Below, in pieces: positions 1-62,573 of a stretch of DNA of 64,000 nt. The notes below the pieces were generated by a model. That model saw only the letters and a list, made by a program, of their open reading frames with translations. It did no database searches and was not told the origin of the DNA. Source of the stretch: Minisyncoccia bacterium (GTDB taxonomy: Bacteria; Patescibacteriota; Minisyncoccia; SW-4-49-11); the NCBI GenBank assembly GCA_044341565.1, contig JBIIRM010000003.1, positions 45,187 to 109,186 on the forward strand, given 5' to 3'. Position 1 is the stretch's first letter; each line of letters starts with the position of its first letter. Position numbers and translations under genes: made by a program.

Positions 1-2
1 AA

Positions 3-1067
3 GGTGGTCCAGGAACAGGTAAATCAGTTGTAGCTATCAATCTTCTTGTAGAATTAAATCGTCGAGGTAAAATGTCTCAATATGTTACTAAAACATCCGC
101 CCCTCGAGATGTTTATTTTGAAAAACTAAGAGGAGAGAAAAGGATGATTGAATTAAGGTCTTTATTTGTCGGTTCTGGTACTTTTATCAATGCTCCTGAG
201 AATATAATCAACACATTGATAATCGATGAGGCTCACCGTTTAACAGAGAAAACAGGTTTCTTAAAAAGGGGGGATAATCAAATTAAGGAAATTCTAAAAT
301 CTTCCTTGTCTTCAGTATTTTTTATTGATGAAGACCAACGGGTTTCTGTTGCTGACTATGGGGAAATAGGTGTCATAGAAGAGTTAGCTAAAGAGCTTGG
401 AATAACTGTTCATAAGCAGAAACTAGAATCTCAATTTAGATGTAATGGTTCAGATGGCTATTTAGCTTGGGTAGATAATATTCTTCAGATTAAAGAAACC
501 GCAAATTACGATTTAAGTTCTCTTGACTATGAGTTTGATTTTAAAGTATTTGATAATCCGCTAAAGCTACAAGAGGCTATTTACGAGAAAAATGAGATTA
601 ATAATAAAGCTCGTTTAGTAGCAGGTTATTGTTGGAAATGGGTTAGTAAAAACGATCCATCCGCATATGATTTTAAGGAAGAGGAATTTGGCTTCAATAT
701 GCGTTGGAATATGACGGATTATGGAGGTAAGTGGATAATAGACCCTAACTCAGTTTCTGAAATAGGCTGTATACACACAGCTCAAGGACTAGAGGTCGAT
801 TATGTAGGGGTTATTATTGGGAATGATTTAATCGTTAGGGATGGTGAAGTATTAGTCAATCCAAAAGAGAGAGATAGTGGCGATAGAACTATTTTTGGTT
901 GGAAAAAAGGAATTAAAGAAAACCCAGATTACTGGAATCCATTATTGAAAATGATAATAAAAAATACCTATAGAACTTTAATGACAAGAGGAATGAAAGG
1001 GTGCTATATCTATTGTACTGATCCAGAGACACAAGAATATTTTAGAAAATTATTAGAGAGAAAGTAA
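3..1067 (+). CDS. DUF2075-type P-loop NTPase / helicase-like protein, 5'-truncated by the window edge
   Basis: The ORF runs in frame from the window edge (GGPGTGKSVVAINLL = Walker A at nt 3-47). IIDEAHRL is a DEAH-like Walker B. The C-terminal region (AGYCWKWVS...IHTAQGLEVDYVGVIIGNDL...) matches the UvrD_C-like tail typical of the DUF2075 family. Confidence 0.6.
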   Translation, partial: GGPGTGKSVVAINLLVELNRRGKMSQYVTKTSAPRDVYFEKLRGEKRMIELRSLFVGSGTFINAPENIINTLIIDEAHRLTEKTGFLKRGDNQIKEILKSSLSSVFFIDEDQRVSVADYGEIGVIEELAKELGITVHKQKLESQFRCNGSDGYLAWVDNILQIKETANYDLSSLDYEFDFKVFDNPLKLQEAIYEKNEINNKARLVAGYCWKWVSKNDPSAYDFKEEEFGFNMRWNMTDYGGKWIIDPNSVSEIGCIHTAQGLEVDYVGVIIGNDLIVRDGEVLVNPKERDSGDRTIFGWKKGIKENPDYWNPLLKMIIKNTYRTLMTRGMKGCYIYCTDPETQEYFRKLLERK

Positions 1068-1188
1068 AAATATGAATGTGAAGGATGTAAATATAATCAA
1101 CCACATAAACATAAGGGGAAATATGCCAAAATTATGGATTGGGAAAAGGGGAAAGTTATTAGGTTTGTTGATCTCATAAAAAAATAAT

Positions 1189-3066
1189 ATAAAAATTAAA
1201 TCTCTCCAAATCTCAAATATACTTAGCTTCCCCCATGTCGAAAATATAGAAGTTGCTCCAAAAATCATCTTTGATAAAGATTTAAGTATTCTTATTGGTC
1301 AAAATGGTTCAGGAAAATCAACAGTCCTAGAAATAATAAACTTTATTTTTAGGAGAGTGATTTTTATTCCATATAACAGAAATACAGATTTATATACTAA
1401 AAGAAACACAATTAATTCTAATGAAAAGAAGCAAATATTATCACAAATACATAATATTTCATACTATCATGGTTTTCGTCTTGATAGGAATTACGATTTT
1501 GAAAATAATGAACAAAAAATACGAGTTGTTGTTGAGTTGGATAATATTGATTTAGATAATATTGCACATCTTAAAAATAATACAGACCAGTTATCACCAA
1601 TAATTGATATGTATTCGGCTGAGCAAATGTTTGGAGATGGGGTAATACAAGAGGAGTATCAATTAGATATTATCTTAAATAGTACAAATAAAACCTATAT
1701 CGTCGAAACTAATCAAGATATTGGATATACTTATTTAAGAGCATATAATCTATATAAAGAGATGATAGAAATATATAATGAAGAGAACTTTGATGCTCCA
1801 ATCAAAAATTTAGCTGAATCATTTTCATTGATTGGGGGATACAGGAATTATAATTCTTATGCTACTCATGTTTCTCTTGGTGCTGGAGAAACCTCAATAA
1901 AACAAATTCAGGAGATTAGGGTTTCTGAGTCTTCAAGGAGTGCAAATTCTGTAGAAAATACTGAGCCTTCCATTTTTAGTTTAGTTCGATTGAAAATGGC
2001 TGGTCAATGTTTTGACTTAATAGGTACTAATGCAAATCAGCAAGAATGTGAAGCTACTGCAAATAATATGGATTTTATAAGAAGTATCAATGATAAACTC
2101 AAAATTATTAATCTTAGAGTAGAAATTAAGCTTCTTGATTATTCACGCTGGAATTTTACTTTTTCTTTTGTTGATATCAAAAGAGGTAGAGATATTTCTG
2201 ATATAAATGTTTTGAGTGCTGGGCAAAAGGCAATTATTCATTTAATATTTGAGGCGTATGGACGAGGTTATTTACAAGGTGGGTTAGTGATTATCGATGA
2301 GCCTGAAATACATTTACATTATCAGTTTCAAAGTGAATATATTCGTGTGATAGAGAAATTAAACAGCGAACAGGATTGTCAGTACATCTTAGTTACGCAT
2401 TCTGAATCTCTCATAAATTCGGAGACTATAGATAATGTTGTACGCTTATCTCTGGATGAAAAGGGTTATACTAAAGTTAATCAACCAGTCATTAAAACTG
2501 ATCAAAAATGGCTTGTTAAGATTTTAGATAATATGCGTTCTACTCACGCATTTTTTGGAAGTAAGATTTTATTGGTAGAAGGAGAAACAGATCGTTATTT
2601 TTTCCGTGAGGTTCTAGGAGAGATAGAGGAGAAGTTAGGGAAAGGATTAATTCAAGATATAACTATATTATCTGTTGATAGTAAAAATAATTTTACAGAG
2701 TGGAAAAACTTATTCAGTACCTTTGGGCTAAAAGCTTTTTGTATTGGTGATTTAGATTATGCATTTATTTTTTATCCTAAGGAGAAACAAAGTAAGATTA
2801 AAAACTTAAAACAAGTTACCGAGTTTTTAAATGATCATCCAGACGTTATTTCAAAGATAGAAGGAGAGTATCAAAATGGAACATATATTTTAAAAGAGGG
2901 GGATTTAGAGATGTATTTAAATATTAAAAAAGATCTTAGTAACGTAATATATTTTTGTCAGAACAATCTCAAAACATATCTTGCAGATAGTAAAAACTCC
3001 AAAGTACAAGAATTGAAAAGAATTATGGCTTGTATTACGGGTGAGAATGAAGCTGATTTGTGGTGA
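1189..3066 (+). CDS. OLD-family ATP-dependent endonuclease (ABC-type ATPase head + C-terminal Toprim)
   Basis: Walker A GQNGSGKST lies at 1303-1329, upstream of the GTG at 1357 called by the ORF track. The ABC signature is LSAGQK, Walker B is LVIIDEPEIHLH and the H-loop is ILVTHSE. The Toprim motifs are LLVEGETD and CIGDLD. The in-frame reading has no ATG/GTG/TTG between the TAA at 1177-1179 and the Walker A, so the placed start (ATA 1189, which would give MKIKSLQISNILSF) is provisional. Confidence 0.75.
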   Translation: MKIKSLQISNILSFPHVENIEVAPKIIFDKDLSILIGQNGSGKSTVLEIINFIFRRVIFIPYNRNTDLYTKRNTINSNEKKQILSQIHNISYYHGFRLDRNYDFENNEQKIRVVVELDNIDLDNIAHLKNNTDQLSPIIDMYSAEQMFGDGVIQEEYQLDIILNSTNKTYIVETNQDIGYTYLRAYNLYKEMIEIYNEENFDAPIKNLAESFSLIGGYRNYNSYATHVSLGAGETSIKQIQEIRVSESSRSANSVENTEPSIFSLVRLKMAGQCFDLIGTNANQQECEATANNMDFIRSINDKLKIINLRVEIKLLDYSRWNFTFSFVDIKRGRDISDINVLSAGQKAIIHLIFEAYGRGYLQGGLVIIDEPEIHLHYQFQSEYIRVIEKLNSEQDCQYILVTHSESLINSETIDNVVRLSLDEKGYTKVNQPVIKTDQKWLVKILDNMRSTHAFFGSKILLVEGETDRYFFREVLGEIEEKLGKGLIQDITILSVDSKNNFTEWKNLFSTFGLKAFCIGDLDYAFIFYPKEKQSKIKNLKQVTEFLNDHPDVISKIEGEYQNGTYILKEGDLEMYLNIKKDLSNVIYFCQNNLKTYLADSKNSKVQELKRIMACITGENEADLW

Positions 3067-3118
3067 AGTATGGAATCGCCTTATATAGATGCTATAATAA
3101 ATCTATAAACAATAATCT

Positions 3119-3358
3119 ATGAAACTCTTTCGTTATCGTAAACCATCTCTCAAAACATTACTTGGAGTGACAAAGCTGAAGCGTAGGATAAAGAAGGCTA
3201 CGGGAATTTCTGCTATTCAATCTCTCAGTCCTTCTCGAGTTAAGCAAAAAATAAAATACAATATAGGGTATAATAAACCTATTTTTAAACATACCAGAGA
3301 ACTGAGCAAGGGCAAAGTCCCAAGTTTATTCGGCTGGTTTTCAAAATTATTTAAGTAA
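3119..3358 (+). CDS. small basic hypothetical protein (79 aa, Lys/Arg-rich)
   Basis: The ORF lies immediately downstream of the OLD gene on the same strand. No recognisable domain. Confidence 0.3.
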   Translation: MKLFRYRKPSLKTLLGVTKLKRRIKKATGISAIQSLSPSRVKQKIKYNIGYNKPIFKHTRELSKGKVPSLFGWFSKLFK

Positions 3359-3387
3359 TAAAAAAAATCCCCCGGCTAGGCGGGGGT
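3358..3387 (-). terminator. GC hairpin (CCCCCG...CGGGGG) with an A-run on the plus strand, i.e. a T-run on the minus strand
   Basis: Seen in sequence at 3369-3386 with A10 at 3358-3367. Orientation fits a minus-strand transcript arriving from the right (ORF 3457..3741). Confidence 0.45.
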
Positions 3388-3456
3388 GGGGGAGATGTTG
3401 ATTGACTTCAGATTTCCCCTGTGAGTTGCAGCACGAGAATGCGCTGCTTCTCCCGC

Positions 3457-3741
3457 TCAGGGGGGGAGAGGATGTTTTTGTCCTTCATGAACAAAGAATC
3501 CGTCCTCTATTCCTTCTTGGAGCAAGCTGTCTGCCAACTTCTGCTGGCTGAATGTGAGTCGACTGAGGTTGGGCTTCTGGTTTGCCAAACGGCGGAGAGC
3601 ATCTTGCATCCCCGAAGAATAAACACCCATGATGCAGTTGCAATTTGCTAAGACAACATAGCATATTTTATCAATTTTGTCAATAGGTAATAACTGAAAA
3701 TTCCTTATATCAAAAAGCAAAATCCAATTAAATTCACTCAA
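3457..3741 (-). CDS. hypothetical protein (94 aa) in a GC-richer segment
   Basis: The ORF ends just upstream of the minus-oriented terminator hairpin. No domain recognised, and the competing plus-strand ORF 3421..3651 overlaps it. Confidence 0.25.
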   Translation of the reverse strand: MSEFNWILLFDIRNFQLLPIDKIDKICYVVLANCNCIMGVYSSGMQDALRRLANQKPNLSRLTFSQQKLADSLLQEGIEDGFFVHEGQKHPLPP

Positions 3742-3782
3742 AGCCTGGTTAAGCGGCTGACCGCAAGACTATTTTCGAGCAA

Positions 3783-4184
3783 ATGCTCCTCGCTACAGGG
3801 AAGTATACCGTTCTAAAAGGGGGGTATGAGCATACTATGCCCTTGGTTGCTCAGATTTCTCGGGAGTTAGAAGAGGATAAGGTTCTGGAAGGAGTAAGAA
3901 AATCTCCTGATTTTATCCTTATTAATAAAAAGCATCCACATGTTGATTTTATTGAAGTAAAATATCATAAAGATAGAAACTCGACTTATATTCTGGAAGA
4001 TACTCAGGAAATTCACGCATTCTGGCCGCATGCAAAATTATTTGTTGCAACACGAGAAGGATTCTTCCTGGATACCTGTTCTGACATTATTAAATATCAC
4101 AATATTCAGCCCTTCTCAGACCATATTGTGTCATCAGAGCTACAAGAAGATTATCTAAAGATTTTGAAGAAGTTTTTGAGGTAA
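3783..4184 (+). CDS. hypothetical protein with PD-(D/E)xK-like motif (candidate nuclease fold)
   Basis: SPDFILINKKHPHVDFIEVKY gives PD ... D-x-E-V-K spacing typical of the PD-(D/E)xK restriction-endonuclease-like core. The assignment rests on the motif only. Confidence 0.35.
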   Translation: MLLATGKYTVLKGGYEHTMPLVAQISRELEEDKVLEGVRKSPDFILINKKHPHVDFIEVKYHKDRNSTYILEDTQEIHAFWPHAKLFVATREGFFLDTCSDIIKYHNIQPFSDHIVSSELQEDYLKILKKFLR

Positions 4185-4265
4185 GAAAAAGCAAGTAATA
4201 AAAACGTTGAGTTCAAGTAATATCAGAAGAAGTATGATAGTATATAAGATAGAATATTATATACT

Positions 4266-5192
4266 ATGAGTGAGGATATTATTGATACTAAAAAATTAGA
4301 GAGGCTAAAGGCTCGGGTGAGTACTATTGGAAATCTGATAGGTATTGTTGGGTGGTTGAGTGTGCTGGTGATGACTCCGATATATGTATATTTGGGGTAT
4401 AAAGACAATATATTTACTGGTTTTGTTGGGATTACGGATATTGTATTAAGTATTTTATTGTCCAGTGTTTTTATTATTCTTGGAGCTCGTATTCGAGATG
4501 GGGTGGATATGAATATCAAGAAGTATGTGCAGGTCCTGATAACTATATTGATCTGTATATTAATATTATATTGGTTGGCTGAGAGTTTAGGAGGTGTCAT
4601 TATGTGGCTGGGTATAGGCTTACTTGTGTTTTTGATATGTTCTTGGTTTATAGTTGGTAATATAGTTAAGAAAAAAGAATTTGCAAAAACTCTTTCTAAA
4701 CCTGTATATAAGTATTTTGATAAGAAGGGTTGGATTATATTTGTGTTATCTAGTGTGATTTTGATGACCGGGGCTGTGTTTATTGATCTGACATTAGATG
4801 ATGAGATGTATTGGGACTCATTGTCAGAAGAGGAGTATAGTGAAGAGACAGATAATAAGCTTGCTGCTATGGTGGCGATATTAAATGATAGACCTTTTCC
4901 GAGTAAATTGAGTGATAACATTACTCTGTTAGGAATTAAGGAGCAGCAATCTGGTTCTATTCAATATACATATGAAATACAAAATATAGATTCGAGTCAA
5001 TTATCTACGGAATTCCTTAAGGATTTAATGGTTCAAGAGTACTGTAGTAGTGAATTTTTTAATTATATTCTAGACCAAGAGATAGATATTGCGCATTCAT
5101 TTACAACGGAGAAAGGTGAGAATTATTTTGTTACTCTTGATTTTAGTAGTTGTAAATCTTCTTCATCTAATCTTCTATACAAATCCATATAA
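4266..5192 (+). CDS. membrane protein (4 predicted TM helices) with acidic soluble C-terminal domain
   Basis: Hydrophobic stretches (IGIVGWLSVLVMTPIYVYL etc.) with coding-like composition. The overlapping minus ORF 4223..4921 is low-complexity and is rejected. Confidence 0.5.
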   Translation: MSEDIIDTKKLERLKARVSTIGNLIGIVGWLSVLVMTPIYVYLGYKDNIFTGFVGITDIVLSILLSSVFIILGARIRDGVDMNIKKYVQVLITILICILILYWLAESLGGVIMWLGIGLLVFLICSWFIVGNIVKKKEFAKTLSKPVYKYFDKKGWIIFVLSSVILMTGAVFIDLTLDDEMYWDSLSEEEYSEETDNKLAAMVAILNDRPFPSKLSDNITLLGIKEQQSGSIQYTYEIQNIDSSQLSTEFLKDLMVQEYCSSEFFNYILDQEIDIAHSFTTEKGENYFVTLDFSSCKSSSSNLLYKSI

Positions 5193-5203
5193 ATTGGTAT
5201 AAT

Positions 5204-5647
5204 ATGGGATATATGAATGCTGAGATGGCTATACAAATTAATCAATGGATAGATAGATTTCATAATCCTAGTTATTGGATTATATTTTGGGTTATTGCCT
5301 TGTATATCCTATTAGAATATACGATTTTACCCACAAAGAAAATCCTATTGAATACGGTATATAGTCGTATAGTCTTATATACTAAATTTGGTCTTCTCCT
5401 CTTTACCTTTTCTATTGCCTTATCTCAAAGTGTATTGGGTGGTTGTGCTATTCAGTTAATTCAGAATTATCTGGCGGTCAATTATCTAGACAGAGAATAT
5501 TGGTATCCTTTTGGTTTGGTATTCCGTGAGCAATTAGCTCCTCAATTTTGGATTTGGCTCAGATTATTATATGGGGTGCTTACTATAGGATATGGATTCT
5601 GGATTTATCGGTATTATCGTTTTGTGAAAGGAAAGGTGGGGGAGTAG
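5204..5647 (+). CDS. small membrane protein (3-4 TM)
   Basis: Hydrophobic ORF, Trp/Tyr-rich, immediately after the previous membrane protein. Confidence 0.45.
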   Translation: MGYMNAEMAIQINQWIDRFHNPSYWIIFWVIALYILLEYTILPTKKILLNTVYSRIVLYTKFGLLLFTFSIALSQSVLGGCAIQLIQNYLAVNYLDREYWYPFGLVFREQLAPQFWIWLRLLYGVLTIGYGFWIYRYYRFVKGKVGE

Positions 5648-5653
5648 AAAACT

Positions 5654-5697
5654 GTCCACACCCACCACTGACGTGGTCCCCCCTCGCCAGCGAGGGG
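5654..5697 (+). repeat. GC-rich double-hairpin dispersed repeat, copy 1 (GTCCACACCCACCACT..GTGGTCCCCCCTCGCCAGCGAGGGG)
   Basis: A near-identical copy lies at 12888-12930 and an inverted copy at 62290-62334. Each copy contains two hairpins (ACCAC..GTGGT and CCCTCGC..GCGAGGG). Confidence 0.8.
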
Positions 5698-5791
5698 CAA
5701 AGATGGGTGTCGTATATATTAAACTACTGACAATCTTTGACAAAAGATACTGTTTTTGATACTATTAGCTAGACCTTAAAAGGTGTACTTT

Positions 5792-6391
5792 ATGATTCGT
5801 CCTCTTGCAGCCCTTGGTGCTGCAATGCTTCTCACTACTGCTTGTGCCTCGGCTCCAACCAAGATATCTGCAGCGCCTGTTCAAACGCCTTCTTTTCTGA
5901 GGGCTGTGGGGACGGGTGAGAGCAATCGCTTCGGCAATCCTCTTATTCGAGTGGAGATGTACGCTGAGGGTCAGCTTCAAGGCTCTGTATTGGCTGTTTC
6001 TGGAAGAGCTCACACTCAAAACAGGAATAGGCATATTGCAGGGACAGAGGCTCCTTTGCCAGATGGTCTCTATACGGTGGATAATCAGGTTTATCCTTCC
6101 ACCAATCCACAGACTGCTGGTCAATTCCTCCCGATTTGGCCACAATTCCCAACTGGGCGTACTGAGCTTGGATTCCATCTGGATCCTAGCTACAATATTG
6201 ACCCAAAAGAGGATGGTACTCAAGGCTGTATTGGTTTCACCACTGCAGCAGATAGAGCCAAGCTATTCGGTTGGATTTCTAAGCATAAACCACGCTATCT
6301 CGAGGTGAATCTCTCATGGAAAATTCCTCCCGCCAAGTCGCTATCGGCCTTGGGGCTTTTGCCCTCTCGCTGGCATCAGTACCGGCATTGA
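5792..6391 (+). CDS. secreted protein, divergent YkuD-like (L,D-transpeptidase-fold) candidate
   Basis: ATG at 5792 with SD AAAAGG upstream, signal peptide MIRPLAALGAAMLLTTACASAP. Motif FHLD-x13-TQGCIG parallels the YkuD H-x(14-17)-[ST]HGC[IV] spacing with His replaced by Gln. GC is ~53% against the AT-rich backbone. Confidence 0.4.
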   Translation: MIRPLAALGAAMLLTTACASAPTKISAAPVQTPSFLRAVGTGESNRFGNPLIRVEMYAEGQLQGSVLAVSGRAHTQNRNRHIAGTEAPLPDGLYTVDNQVYPSTNPQTAGQFLPIWPQFPTGRTELGFHLDPSYNIDPKEDGTQGCIGFTTAADRAKLFGWISKHKPRYLEVNLSWKIPPAKSLSALGLLPSRWHQYRH

Positions 6392-6633
6392 GTCAAGTTG
6401 GTCCAGGTTATGTTCCGGTGATTCGGGCTTATGTCTGCGTCTGGGATGCATCTACCACACTCAATCTCCGCGCCGGCCCTAGCCGAGCTACCAGAGCAAT
6501 TGGGAGTCTCTGGCATGGTACTCCTGTTCAAATCATCAATCGCTTTGTGGCGAGCGATGGAATGTACTGGAATTTCGTCCGGGTCAATGGTGGCTCTGGT
6601 TATGTGCGTGATGATTATGTCTGTATCGGCTGA
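6316..6633 (+). CDS. secreted bacterial SH3 (SH3b)-domain protein
   Basis: Signal peptide MENSSRQVAIGLGAFALSLASVPALSQ, SD GAGGTGA 9 nt upstream. LNLRAGPSRATRAIGSLWHGTPVQIIN..DGMYWNFVRVNGGSGYVRDDYV matches the SH3_3 pattern. The ORF overlaps the previous one by 76 nt in another frame. Confidence 0.6.
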   Translation: MENSSRQVAIGLGAFALSLASVPALSQVGPGYVPVIRAYVCVWDASTTLNLRAGPSRATRAIGSLWHGTPVQIINRFVASDGMYWNFVRVNGGSGYVRDDYVCIG

Positions 6634-6663
6634 GGATTCTCCTTTTGCTACCGATTACAATAT

Positions 6664-6695
6664 CTCCCTGCCTTGCGTAGGGAGATTTTTATTTT
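6664..6695 (+). terminator. intrinsic terminator (CTCCCTGCCTTGCGTAGGGAG + TTTTTATTTT)
   Basis: Perfect 7-bp stem followed by a T-run, 30 nt after the stop of the SH3b gene. Confidence 0.7.
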
Positions 6696-6713
6696 GTAAG
6701 AAAAACTCCCCCC

Positions 6714-7031
6714 TCAAAGAGGGGGGAGAGAGAAAGCTTGGGGTTGAGATTTGTTGCAGGAGACTTGTCCTCCATCAAGGAGTCCAAGTACTAGACCTGT
6801 AGCTTTTGTATCGGGGTATTTCTTCAAATACCAAGAGGGAATTTTATTTCCCTCAAAAACCGCTGTGACCTCTACAGTTCCCCCTGTGGGGGTGTTGTAT
6901 TGGCAGTATCTTTGTTGCTCCCACTCAACGCGTGAGGAGCGAGTACCCACCCATGCATTGGGTGTGGCTGTGGCGGGGGAAGAAAAGGCTACAATGAGCA
7001 AAAGAGCCTTGAAAATGTGAGAAATGGACAT
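6714..7031 (-). CDS. small secreted hypothetical protein (105 aa)
   Basis: N-terminal signal-like MSISHIFKALLLIVAFSSPATA. The stop lies inside the minus-oriented hairpin 6706-6728 (CTCCCCCCTC..GAGGGGGGAG), which carries an A-run on plus = T-run on minus. Confidence 0.35.
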   Translation of the reverse strand: MSISHIFKALLLIVAFSSPATATPNAWVGTRSSRVEWEQQRYCQYNTPTGGTVEVTAVFEGNKIPSWYLKKYPDTKATGLVLGLLDGGQVSCNKSQPQAFSLPPL

Positions 7032-7100
7032 AATGTCAAAAATTGACGGTTCTGCTGGAATATAGCATATTTTAGCTATTTTGTAAAGGGGTTATAACAT

Positions 7101-7290
7101 AAAAGAAAAAGCCCCCCTCGTCGTAAATGGGATTTACTCCTGGGAAACCTCTCGGTGTTCCAACCTTCCTCCACGGGAAAACTCCCGTTTCCCCGACCCC
7201 TTTCCCAGACTATCTTGAGGTGGAATTTTTATACCGTTTAGAAATAACTGAGAATTGATAAAAAAAACCACCTCAGGATAGAGGTGGATA
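7101..7290 (+). repeat. ~160-190 bp intergenic repeat, copy 1 (second copy at 8752-8915)
   Basis: AAAGCCC(C/G)CCTCGTCGTAAATGGGATTTACTCCTGGGAAACCT(C/T)TCGGTGT(T/C)CCAACC ... CTTGAGGTG.A.TTTTTATAC.G.TTAGAAATAACT.AGAATTGATAA.AAAAAAC is shared by both copies. Copy 1 carries a ~30 nt insertion (TTCCTCCACGGGAAAACTCCCGTTTCCCCGA). Both copies sit in the 5' upstream region of minus-strand genes, in the same relative orientation. Confidence 0.75.
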
Positions 7291-7305
7291 TTGTGGGGAG
7301 GTGAG

Positions 7306-62382: not shown

Positions 62383-62573
62383 TAGGGGCGACCTTACAGT
62401 CGCCTGTATTCCACCCCGTCCGCCTAAAGGCGACCACCCCTCAAGAGGGAAATATATAAAAATGTAGTGTTCTAAATATTTCCTGCCTAGGTTGTGGGTA
62501 TATAGGACCGCTCTATATCATAAAATACATTGTCCTGAAAATTCCCCTCTTGAGGGGTGCCATCTTTGATGGC
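62383..62573. repeat. cluster of short GC-rich hairpin motifs in a 430-bp intergenic region (GTAGGGGCGACCTTACAGTCGCC; CCGCCTAAAGGCG; CCACCCCTCAAGAGGG; CCCCTCTTGAGGGG; GCCATCTTTGATGGC)
   Basis: CCACCCCTCAAGAGGG also occurs at 8012-8029, and CCCCTCTTGAGGGG is its reverse complement. GTAGGGGCGACCTT.CAGTCGC also occurs at 15424-15445. Confidence 0.7.

Follow-up and report, generated by a model that had tools for sequence, protein, structure and literature searches.

The left end of the 64,000-nucleotide stretch of DNA analyzed in the present study (the window), which comes from contig JBIIRM010000003.1 of a Minisyncoccia bacterium, carries the C-terminal part of a gene for a DUF2075 protein, a gene for an OLD-family nuclease, a small basic open reading frame (ORF) of 79 aa, and an ORF of 133 aa with a PD-(D/E)xK-like motif (Table 1). 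A reading made from the letters alone (the sequence-only reading) had taken these genes to be a defense-island-like module in which the DUF2075 protein and OLD would form an analog of Gabija or of class 2 OLD systems. The island character of the DNA was borne out. A public contig of 10 kb (L001) matches the window at every shared base and continues for 2987 nt past its left end, so that window positions equal those of L001 minus 2987. It shows a MazG-like gene directly 5′ of the DUF2075 gene and, left of that, genes for a DUF2726 protein and then for a RhuM-Fic protein, the latter being a full-length match to the PADLOC candidate PDC-S23 (3e-112), and the corresponding slot of a sister strain contains an EcoRI-like methylase and GmrSD. 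Taken as a whole, the findings described below make it quite probable that this DNA represents the right-hand portion of a defense island that swaps its cargo and is composed of independent modules, not of one four-gene system.

The family assignments of both large genes held in profile searches. In Pfam, the ORF at the left edge of the window matched PF09848 (DUF2075, now SLFN-g3_helicase) with an E-value of 1.8e-95, and the OLD ORF matched AAA_15 (4e-22), AAA_21 (7e-17), and OLD-like_TOPRIM (3e-12). Among the PADLOC models, “Old” was the best match of the OLD ORF (5e-27), followed by the AriA and GajA models. The OLD gene is indeed preceded on the same strand by the DUF2075 gene, with 121 nt between them, but the two genes neither overlap nor are coupled, unlike the MazG-like and DUF2075 genes, which overlap by 4 bp in L001. 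A consensus scan of the spacer found no terminator-like site and no promoter-like site on the plus strand, and two promoter-like matches on the minus strand (1076-1049 and 1068-1039) reach only its 5′ end.

The neighborhoods of the two families were surveyed from both sides. The OLD survey, which used one genome per species, covered 60 orthologous loci with 39-75% identity, each taken with at most 10 kb of flanking sequence to either side, and the loci represent no fewer than nine phyla, among them Proteobacteria, Nitrospirales, Chlorobiota, Patescibacteria, Actinomycetota, Acidobacteriota, Bacteroidota, Verrucomicrobiota, and cyanobacteria. The tblastn queries used on these loci were the DUF2075, MazG-like, DUF2726, 79-aa, and 133-aa proteins and the two membrane proteins that the sequence-only reading had listed. 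The DUF2075 survey covered 80 orthologous metagenomic loci with 51-89% identity. DUF2075 was found within 10 kb of OLD in one of the 60 OLD loci (L036) and directly adjacent to it in none, while OLD was found in none of the 80 DUF2075 loci, although the downstream sequence reaches 1.5 kb or more in 48 of them. When the three nearest genes on each side of OLD were clustered, no family occurred in more than four of the 60 loci. The 116 nearest neighbors were diverse in Pfam (ResIII, 6; HsdR, 2; GmrSD, 2; Mrr, 2; integrases, 3), and neither PF09848 nor UvrD was among the 25 families listed for them, down to families with a single member. The 79-aa and 133-aa ORFs were found in none of the 140 surveyed loci. 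The DUF2075 proteins most similar to the present one (92 and 84% identity) have an RND efflux operon or a glycosidase gene downstream, and the nearest relatives of the two proteins differ, with DUF2075 being 92% identical to Flavobacteriia proteins and OLD being 77% identical to a protein from a Patescibacteria metagenome-assembled genome. The proposed pairing is thus not kept as a neighborhood, and the adjacency of DUF2075 and OLD is an incidental product of defense-island packing.

The alternative, in which DUF2075 and OLD compose a two-component system of a helicase and an OLD nuclease, that is, a Gabija analog with a swapped helicase, draws on the shared strand, the short spacing, and the lack of a predicted terminator between the genes. 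Gabija (GajA and GajB) provides a precedent for cooperation between an OLD nuclease and a superfamily 1 (SF1) helicase (PMC10568477), and the locus resembles it in that OLD adjoins the gene of an SF1-type helicase encoded by the same strand and in that GajA chains are top fold matches of OLD. In addition, L036 holds both genes within 4 kb. In L036, however, DUF2075 and a MazG-like gene are located on the opposite strand 1.7 kb past OLD, so that the genes converge. The helicase of the present locus is DUF2075, not a UvrD/PcrA/Rep-like protein, and lies upstream of the nuclease gene rather than downstream. Moreover, DUF2075 already has a conserved overlapping partner in the MazG-like gene, the slot following MazG-like and DUF2075 in another Patescibacteria lineage is occupied by RadC and a KAP NTPase, and the OLD gene here has lost its start codon. 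With these points, the differing nearest relatives, and the absence of the adjacency from the surveyed loci, the two-component explanation appears highly improbable.

The closest OLD relatives (L002-L008, L033, and L055, with 64-75% identity) mostly end restriction-modification operons that differ from one another: their neighbors are a type III methylase and Res subunit in L002, a PLD-SNF2 protein, an Eco57I-type methylase, and DUF4062 in L003, an EcoRI methylase and GmrSD in L004, HsdR in L006 and L033, and HsdM in L055. This placement conflicts with a published remark that class 1 OLD is not found near other defense genes (PMC10568477). It raises another explanation, namely that the OLD clade is a generic add-on to helicase/translocase systems, often the last gene after HsdR, type III Res, or PLD-SNF2, with an interchangeable partner, and that at the present locus it was recruited to a position behind a DUF2075 helicase. 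The tight spacing in L002 (ResIII), L033 (HsdR), L008 (ResIII endonuclease), L055 (HsdM), and L003, where the gap is 3 nt or the overlap 4 nt, would agree with this idea, as would the OLD gene after HsdR in L006, at a gap of 265 nt. A helicase domain occurs, however, in only about six to eight of the 116 nearest neighbors, most of the 60 loci have small, unrelated, or opposite-strand neighbors, and embedding in defense islands accounts for the pattern without functional coupling. The add-on explanation is therefore considered improbable, and OLD is best regarded as one module among the independent modules of the island.

A conserved unit does exist at the locus, but it consists of the MazG-like and DUF2075 genes and was invisible in the window because the partner lies outside it. 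The MazG-like NTP pyrophosphohydrolase (105 aa; L001 1878-2195) matched PF12643 (1e-13) and carries the EXXE(12-28)EXXD motif as E34, E37, E40, E56, and D59, which are 99-100% conserved in 69 partners. A MazG-like gene was present in 70 of the 80 DUF2075 loci. It lies directly upstream on the same strand in 66, within 30 nt and often overlapping in 54 of those, and nearby in the opposite orientation in four. Among the remaining 10 loci, the upstream sequence of seven is too short to tell. The Flavobacteriia relatives of DUF2075 keep the identical 4-bp overlap. A nucleotide pyrophosphohydrolase also adjoins DUF2075 on plasmids of the archaeon Halalkalicoccus and of Priestia, according to deposited annotation. 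The order is DUF3578-pyrophosphohydrolase-DUF2075 on the Priestia plasmid (L178 1048-4366) and pyrophosphohydrolase-HNH-DUF2075 on the Bacillus cereus plasmid NZ_CP095378 (L180 639-4231), and the DUF2075 helicases of these two plasmids are distant (26-39% identity), which indicates that the association extends past the orthologous clade. Pairs of this kind are found in Bacteroidota, Proteobacteria, Patescibacteria, Bacillota, and haloarchaea. The operon of the present locus (L001 1878-4054; window −1109 to 1067) is chimeric: its MazG-like protein is 93% identical to the copy in the Patescibacteria locus L173 and 52% to that of Wenyingzhuangia, while the corresponding values for its DUF2075 protein are 56% (L173) and 92% (Wenyingzhuangia). 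These split identities imply that the two genes recombined close to their junction and that Bacteroidota and Patescibacteria have exchanged DNA recently.

The complete DUF2075 protein has 620 aa (L001 2192-4054), of which the window carries only residues 267-620, and its match to PF09848 (7e-98) spans residues 260-606. The sequence-only reading had placed the P-loop at the N terminus. That placement resulted from the window edge cutting the gene, and the P-loop actually starts at residue 267, with Walker A (GGPGTGKS) encoded at nt 3-26 and DEAH at nt 219-236 of the window. In the N-terminal ∼260 residues, which lie left of the window, D80, E97, and K99 are invariant in 16 homologs and probably represent a PD-(D/E)xK nuclease signature; residues 69-141 gave weak matches to NERD (0.007) and SduA (0.005). 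The PADLOC models matched by the full protein are PDC-S41 (4e-15), AbiO (3e-11), and Nhi (2e-9). Nhi and Nhi-like are single-gene defenses that combine a nuclease with DUF2075 (10.1101/776245; 10.1101/2022.05.11.491447). At the level of architecture, the present protein shares the layout of Nhi from Staphylococcus epidermidis and of Nhi-like (Millman et al. 2022), in which one polypeptide contains an N-terminal PD-(D/E)xK-type motif followed by the DUF2075 SF1 helicase core. It differs from them in that its clade comes with an overlapping MazG-like gene and in that it matches their models only weakly. Its homologs number in the thousands, the best being 84-92% identical, and the named ones belong to Flavobacteriia and other Bacteroidota. 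A profile search of Protein Data Bank sequences found no match to the protein.

The modular organization of the island became evident from comparison with relatives. The window encodes an isoleucyl-tRNA synthetase (IleRS) that shares 55-64% identity with proteins assigned by name to Candidatus Dojkabacteria, which puts the organism within Patescibacteria, and 96% identity with the IleRS of a sister strain (L172). The sister strain shares the RhuM-Fic gene (95% nucleotide identity), which makes up the left conserved flank of a variable slot, and everything from window position 5172 rightward (85% nucleotide identity), which makes up the right flank. Between these anchors it carries the EcoRI-like methylase, GmrSD, and DUF3800 and is without the DUF2726, MazG-like, DUF2075, and OLD genes, the 79-aa ORF, and the 308-aa ORF. 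The G+C-anomalous DNA that had been noted beside the block does exist as a G+C-rich segment at ∼5.7-6.7 kb, but it has 85% identity with the sister strain and is, therefore, not a strain-specific insertion. In L173, which belongs to another Patescibacteria lineage, the order is MazG-like, DUF2075, RadC, KAP NTPase, and then the 79-aa ORF, while in L082 a type I restriction-modification operon precedes the 79-aa ORF. L173 and L082 are 96% identical rightward from the start of the 79-aa gene and unrelated leftward of it. L082 had been considered as the syntenic relative with an empty site, but only the 79-aa block and a RhuM/Fic protein of 49% identity are common to both, and L172 served as the syntenic comparison in its place. 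The locus is thus a defense hotspot whose flanks are defined and which, in the reduced genomes of Patescibacteria, accommodates at least three alternative cargoes.

The OLD ORF has the architecture that defines its family, an N-terminal ABC ATPase fused to a C-terminal Toprim domain with the Glu and DxD elements. The ATPase motifs are Walker A (GQNGSGKST, 1297-1323), the signature LSAGQ (2212-2226), Walker B (IIDEPE, 2287-2307), and the H-loop (THS, 2392-2406), and the Toprim motifs comprise E464 (of the sequence VEG) and D468 (in 2569-2595), D521xD523 (in 2743-2760), and E574 (in 2893-2916). Walker A, Walker B, the H-loop, E464, D521xD523, and E574 are invariant in 13 orthologs. The putative metal ligands E464, D468, D521, D523, and E574, invariant across the ortholog alignment, align with E377, D381, D431, D433, and E480 of TsOLD, whose metal ligands have been defined experimentally (PMC7049728). 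More than 700 homologs were found, and the 12 that were aligned are ∼620-645 aa long and begin with MK(I/L)(K/I/T)…LQ, one of them having a 13-residue extension ahead of this shared N terminus.

By the published single-gene definition, in which class 1 OLD has no UvrD-like, retron, or AriB partner (PMC10568477), the OLD protein of the present study is predicted to be a stand-alone, class-1-like enzyme. No neighbor cluster exceeds four of the 60 loci, and UvrD is not among the listed recurrent families. The gene downstream of OLD encodes the 79-aa ORF, as opposed to the arrangement of class 2/Gabija. No reverse transcriptase, as in class 3 (retron), was found among the ORFs of positions 1-9000, nor any Rfam match in the block. 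The ATPase and Toprim domains are fused in one ORF, unlike the separate AriB of class 4 (PARIS). The best match among solved structures in the sequence-profile search was TsOLD 6P74 (4e-13), and, in a further difference from Gabija, no GajA chain was found at 1e-3. About 51 residues follow the metal-B Glu, compared with 48 in TsOLD, and the protein seems to lack the long C-terminal helical domain of class 2, which favors class 1. Like P2 Old, TsOLD, and Vibrio cholerae (Vc) OLD, it has an N-terminal ABC ATPase with an inserted domain, a C-terminal Toprim domain, and no conserved partner gene. It exceeds TsOLD, however, by ∼100 aa, which fall within the ATPase insertion, and its LSAGQ signature is clear, whereas the signature of class 1 is reported to be degenerate (PMC7049728). 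Its clade, in contrast to class 1 as described in PMC10568477, is found mostly within defense islands or at the ends of restriction-modification operons, and the copy studied here begins with ATA. Both genes picked out by the sequence-only reading are, then, further members of known families, and DUF2075 and OLD do not compose a new OLD class.

The change at the OLD start deserves attention. The OLD frame contains no ATG, GTG, or TTG ahead of Walker A, and for that reason gene callers and the public annotation begin at the GTG at 1357, giving a 569-aa product without the P-loop. The start position, 1189-1191, is ATA, while ATG is found in all six relatives aligned; the surrounding DNA is TATGAA in those relatives versus TATAAA here, which corresponds to a G-to-A change at 1191. 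Rescue through an upstream ORF or read-through was considered and rejected, given that the in-frame ATG at 1123 terminates at TAA 1177 and that an N-terminal extension is not typical of the orthologs. A second strain allele was also dismissed, as the two database entries are identical save for V versus M at the first residue (GTG). One possibility is that OLD is a dead or dying young pseudogene and that the block is decaying island DNA without present function, which would be compatible with the modular island described above. The loss of the ATG, the N-terminal shortness of the neighboring 133-aa gene, and a minus-strand 94-aa ORF at 3457-3741 point in that direction. The 625 codons have remained open at 29.5% G+C, however, where by our own estimate a random frame has about one stop per 13 codons, every catalytic residue is kept, and the MazG-like and DUF2075 genes are intact. 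We regard decay as a real possibility, though on balance not the probable one. The codons AUA and AUU are known to support weak initiation. The long open frame together with the kept catalytic residues suggests either that the start lesion is recent or that the gene is read at a low level from such a codon.

Table 1. Features at the left end of the window (positions are those of the window)
Feature	Position	Strand	Basis or remark
DUF2075/SLFN-g3 helicase, C-terminal 354 aa (SF1 core)	3-1067	+	PF09848
Spacer of 121 nt from the DUF2075 stop to the OLD start position	1068-1188	.	sequence
OLD-family nuclease ORF, 625 codons	1189-3066 (frame open from 1180)	+	Pfam, PADLOC, ortholog alignment
First canonical in-frame start of the OLD frame, GTG	1357-1359	+	
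Portable block with the 79-aa basic ORF (ORF 3119-3358)	3105-3376	+	
Hairpin, G+C-rich, between an A-run and a T-run	3369-3386	.	terminator-like in both directions
94-aa ORF	3457-3741	-	no family match
133-aa ORF with a D...ExK-like motif	3783-4184	+	
308-aa ORF, strain-specific cargo	4266-5192	+	
147-aa ORF, lineage-conserved	5204-5647	+	

The small ORFs that follow OLD can also be understood from the island context. The 79-aa product is basic, as the sequence-only reading had said, and strongly so, with 22 Lys and Arg versus one Asp or Glu. Its gene lies in a block of 272-289 bp (window 3105-3394; L082 7988-8257; L173 12886-13173) that is ∼92% identical at the nucleotide level in these otherwise unrelated contigs; over 272 bp, the window is 92.6% identical to L082 and L173, and the similarity does not extend into the flanks. 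In every case the gene closes a series of variable defense cargo genes, which end with HsdR, a KAP NTPase, or, here, OLD. Its occurrence after HsdR or a KAP NTPase elsewhere indicates that the 79-aa ORF is not an accessory of OLD. As a weaker lead, the gene may mark the fixed right border of the cargo-swapping hotspot in Patescibacteria. The 133-aa ORF does contain the D...ExK-like motif for which it had been singled out, but its designation as a nuclease rests on a weak match to VRR_NUC (E = 0.012). It aligns to residues ∼26-157 of a ∼158-aa family with 133 representatives, leaving it ∼25 N-terminal residues short, with a stop 10 codons upstream of the ORF, and the sister strain has a 159-aa homolog at the same island position (L172 15291-15795, 75% nucleotide identity). 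It thus belongs to the island framework, as a copy of an island gene that is short at its N terminus. The 308-aa and 147-aa ORFs are the two that the sequence-only reading took for membrane proteins, and the former is alone in its 90% cluster. The 79-aa block, the 133-aa gene, and the 308-aa ORF each stand on their own as fixtures or cargo of the island. The 79-aa, 308-aa, and 147-aa ORFs gave no match in Pfam, PADLOC, NCBIfam, or PHROG.

A patch at 3359-3782, where the G+C content rises to ∼50%, contains the hairpin and the 94-aa ORF and may be a gene remnant. Elsewhere in the window, two adjacent Rfam tRNA matches that were not called by ARAGORN lie at 15198-15261 (53 bits) and 15268-15368 (45 bits). 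The first is only 64 nt long, and the second, of 101 nt, has an apparent insertion after the anticodon-arm region. A terminator-like element of ∼50 bp, composed of a CCCCTC...GAGGGG hairpin and a T-run, occurs at 7976-8030 and 62409-62453 and is common to L082, L083, and L173 at 84-92% identity.

Several observations run counter to the interpretation of the locus as independent modules that comprise an Nhi-type protein and a class-1-like OLD. The matches of the DUF2075 protein to the Nhi and PDC-S41 models are weak (34-53 bits), with that to Nhi (34.5 bits) covering the helicase core only, and the term “Nhi-like” therefore refers to architecture, not orthology. The AlphaFold2 model of the protein, made with 16 close homologs, is too poor for a fold search, with a predicted local distance difference test (pLDDT) score of 56.6, so that the putative N-terminal nuclease fold rests on the motif and the weak NERD and SduA matches. 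The OLD model is better (pLDDT 82.8) and includes helices at residues 540-559, and Foldseek gave GajA and TsOLD as its top folds at about equal rank, with the class 2 enzyme GajA placed slightly above TsOLD. Classes 1 and 2 could not be separated by this search, and the assignment to class 1 rests on context and sequence. The same strand, the 121-nt spacing, and the absence of a predicted terminator would permit co-transcription of DUF2075 and OLD at this locus. Finally, the neighbors of the MazG-like and DUF2075 genes in Wenyingzhuangia and in a second contig from Flavobacteriia are housekeeping genes rather than those of a defense island, and the pair might serve repair or nucleotide sanitation.

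If the function of the pair is instead defense, the operon of MazG-like and PD-(D/E)xK/DUF2075 proteins could be an undescribed two-gene antiphage system that couples hydrolysis of a nucleotide pool to DNA destruction of the Nhi type, which we propose tentatively and rate somewhat below an even possibility. No mention of a pairing of DUF2075 or Schlafen with MazG was found in the searchable literature, and MazG-like plus DUF2075 is absent as a pair from PADLOC 2.0.0; MazG has so far been a predicted, unvalidated defense domain (PMC13092281). In such a system, the DUF2075 protein would most likely act as Nhi does, binding invading or replicating phage DNA and unwinding and degrading it, while the MazG-like pyrophosphohydrolase might act on a nucleotide pool, its conceivable substrates being either a nucleotide signal or dNTPs that are modified or specific to the phage. 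The second module, OLD, would most likely behave like other class 1 enzymes, whose ATPase controls a two-metal Toprim site (PMC7049728; PMC12392090). By analogy with P2 Old, TsOLD, and Vc OLD, the last of which is a nickase blocking phage replication (PMC12392090), a dimer of the ABC ATPase would control the Toprim site, which would nick or cut phage DNA and stop replication. The output of OLD in this strain might, however, be low at most, if translation begins at the near-cognate codon, or might be the product from GTG 1357 without the P-loop, or the gene might be a very young pseudogene.

A helicase-OLD pair of DUF2075 type would have been a new OLD class, and since the pairing is an accident, it matters little in the form in which it was first proposed. 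What the analysis provides instead are by-products. One is a broadly conserved pair of a MazG-like protein and a DUF2075 nuclease-helicase, apparently undescribed, of which half lies within the window. Another is a large clade of stand-alone OLD proteins, encoded inside defense islands and by the terminal genes of restriction-modification operons, which contrasts with textbook class 1. The locus also offers a worked example of a defense hotspot in the reduced genomes of Patescibacteria.

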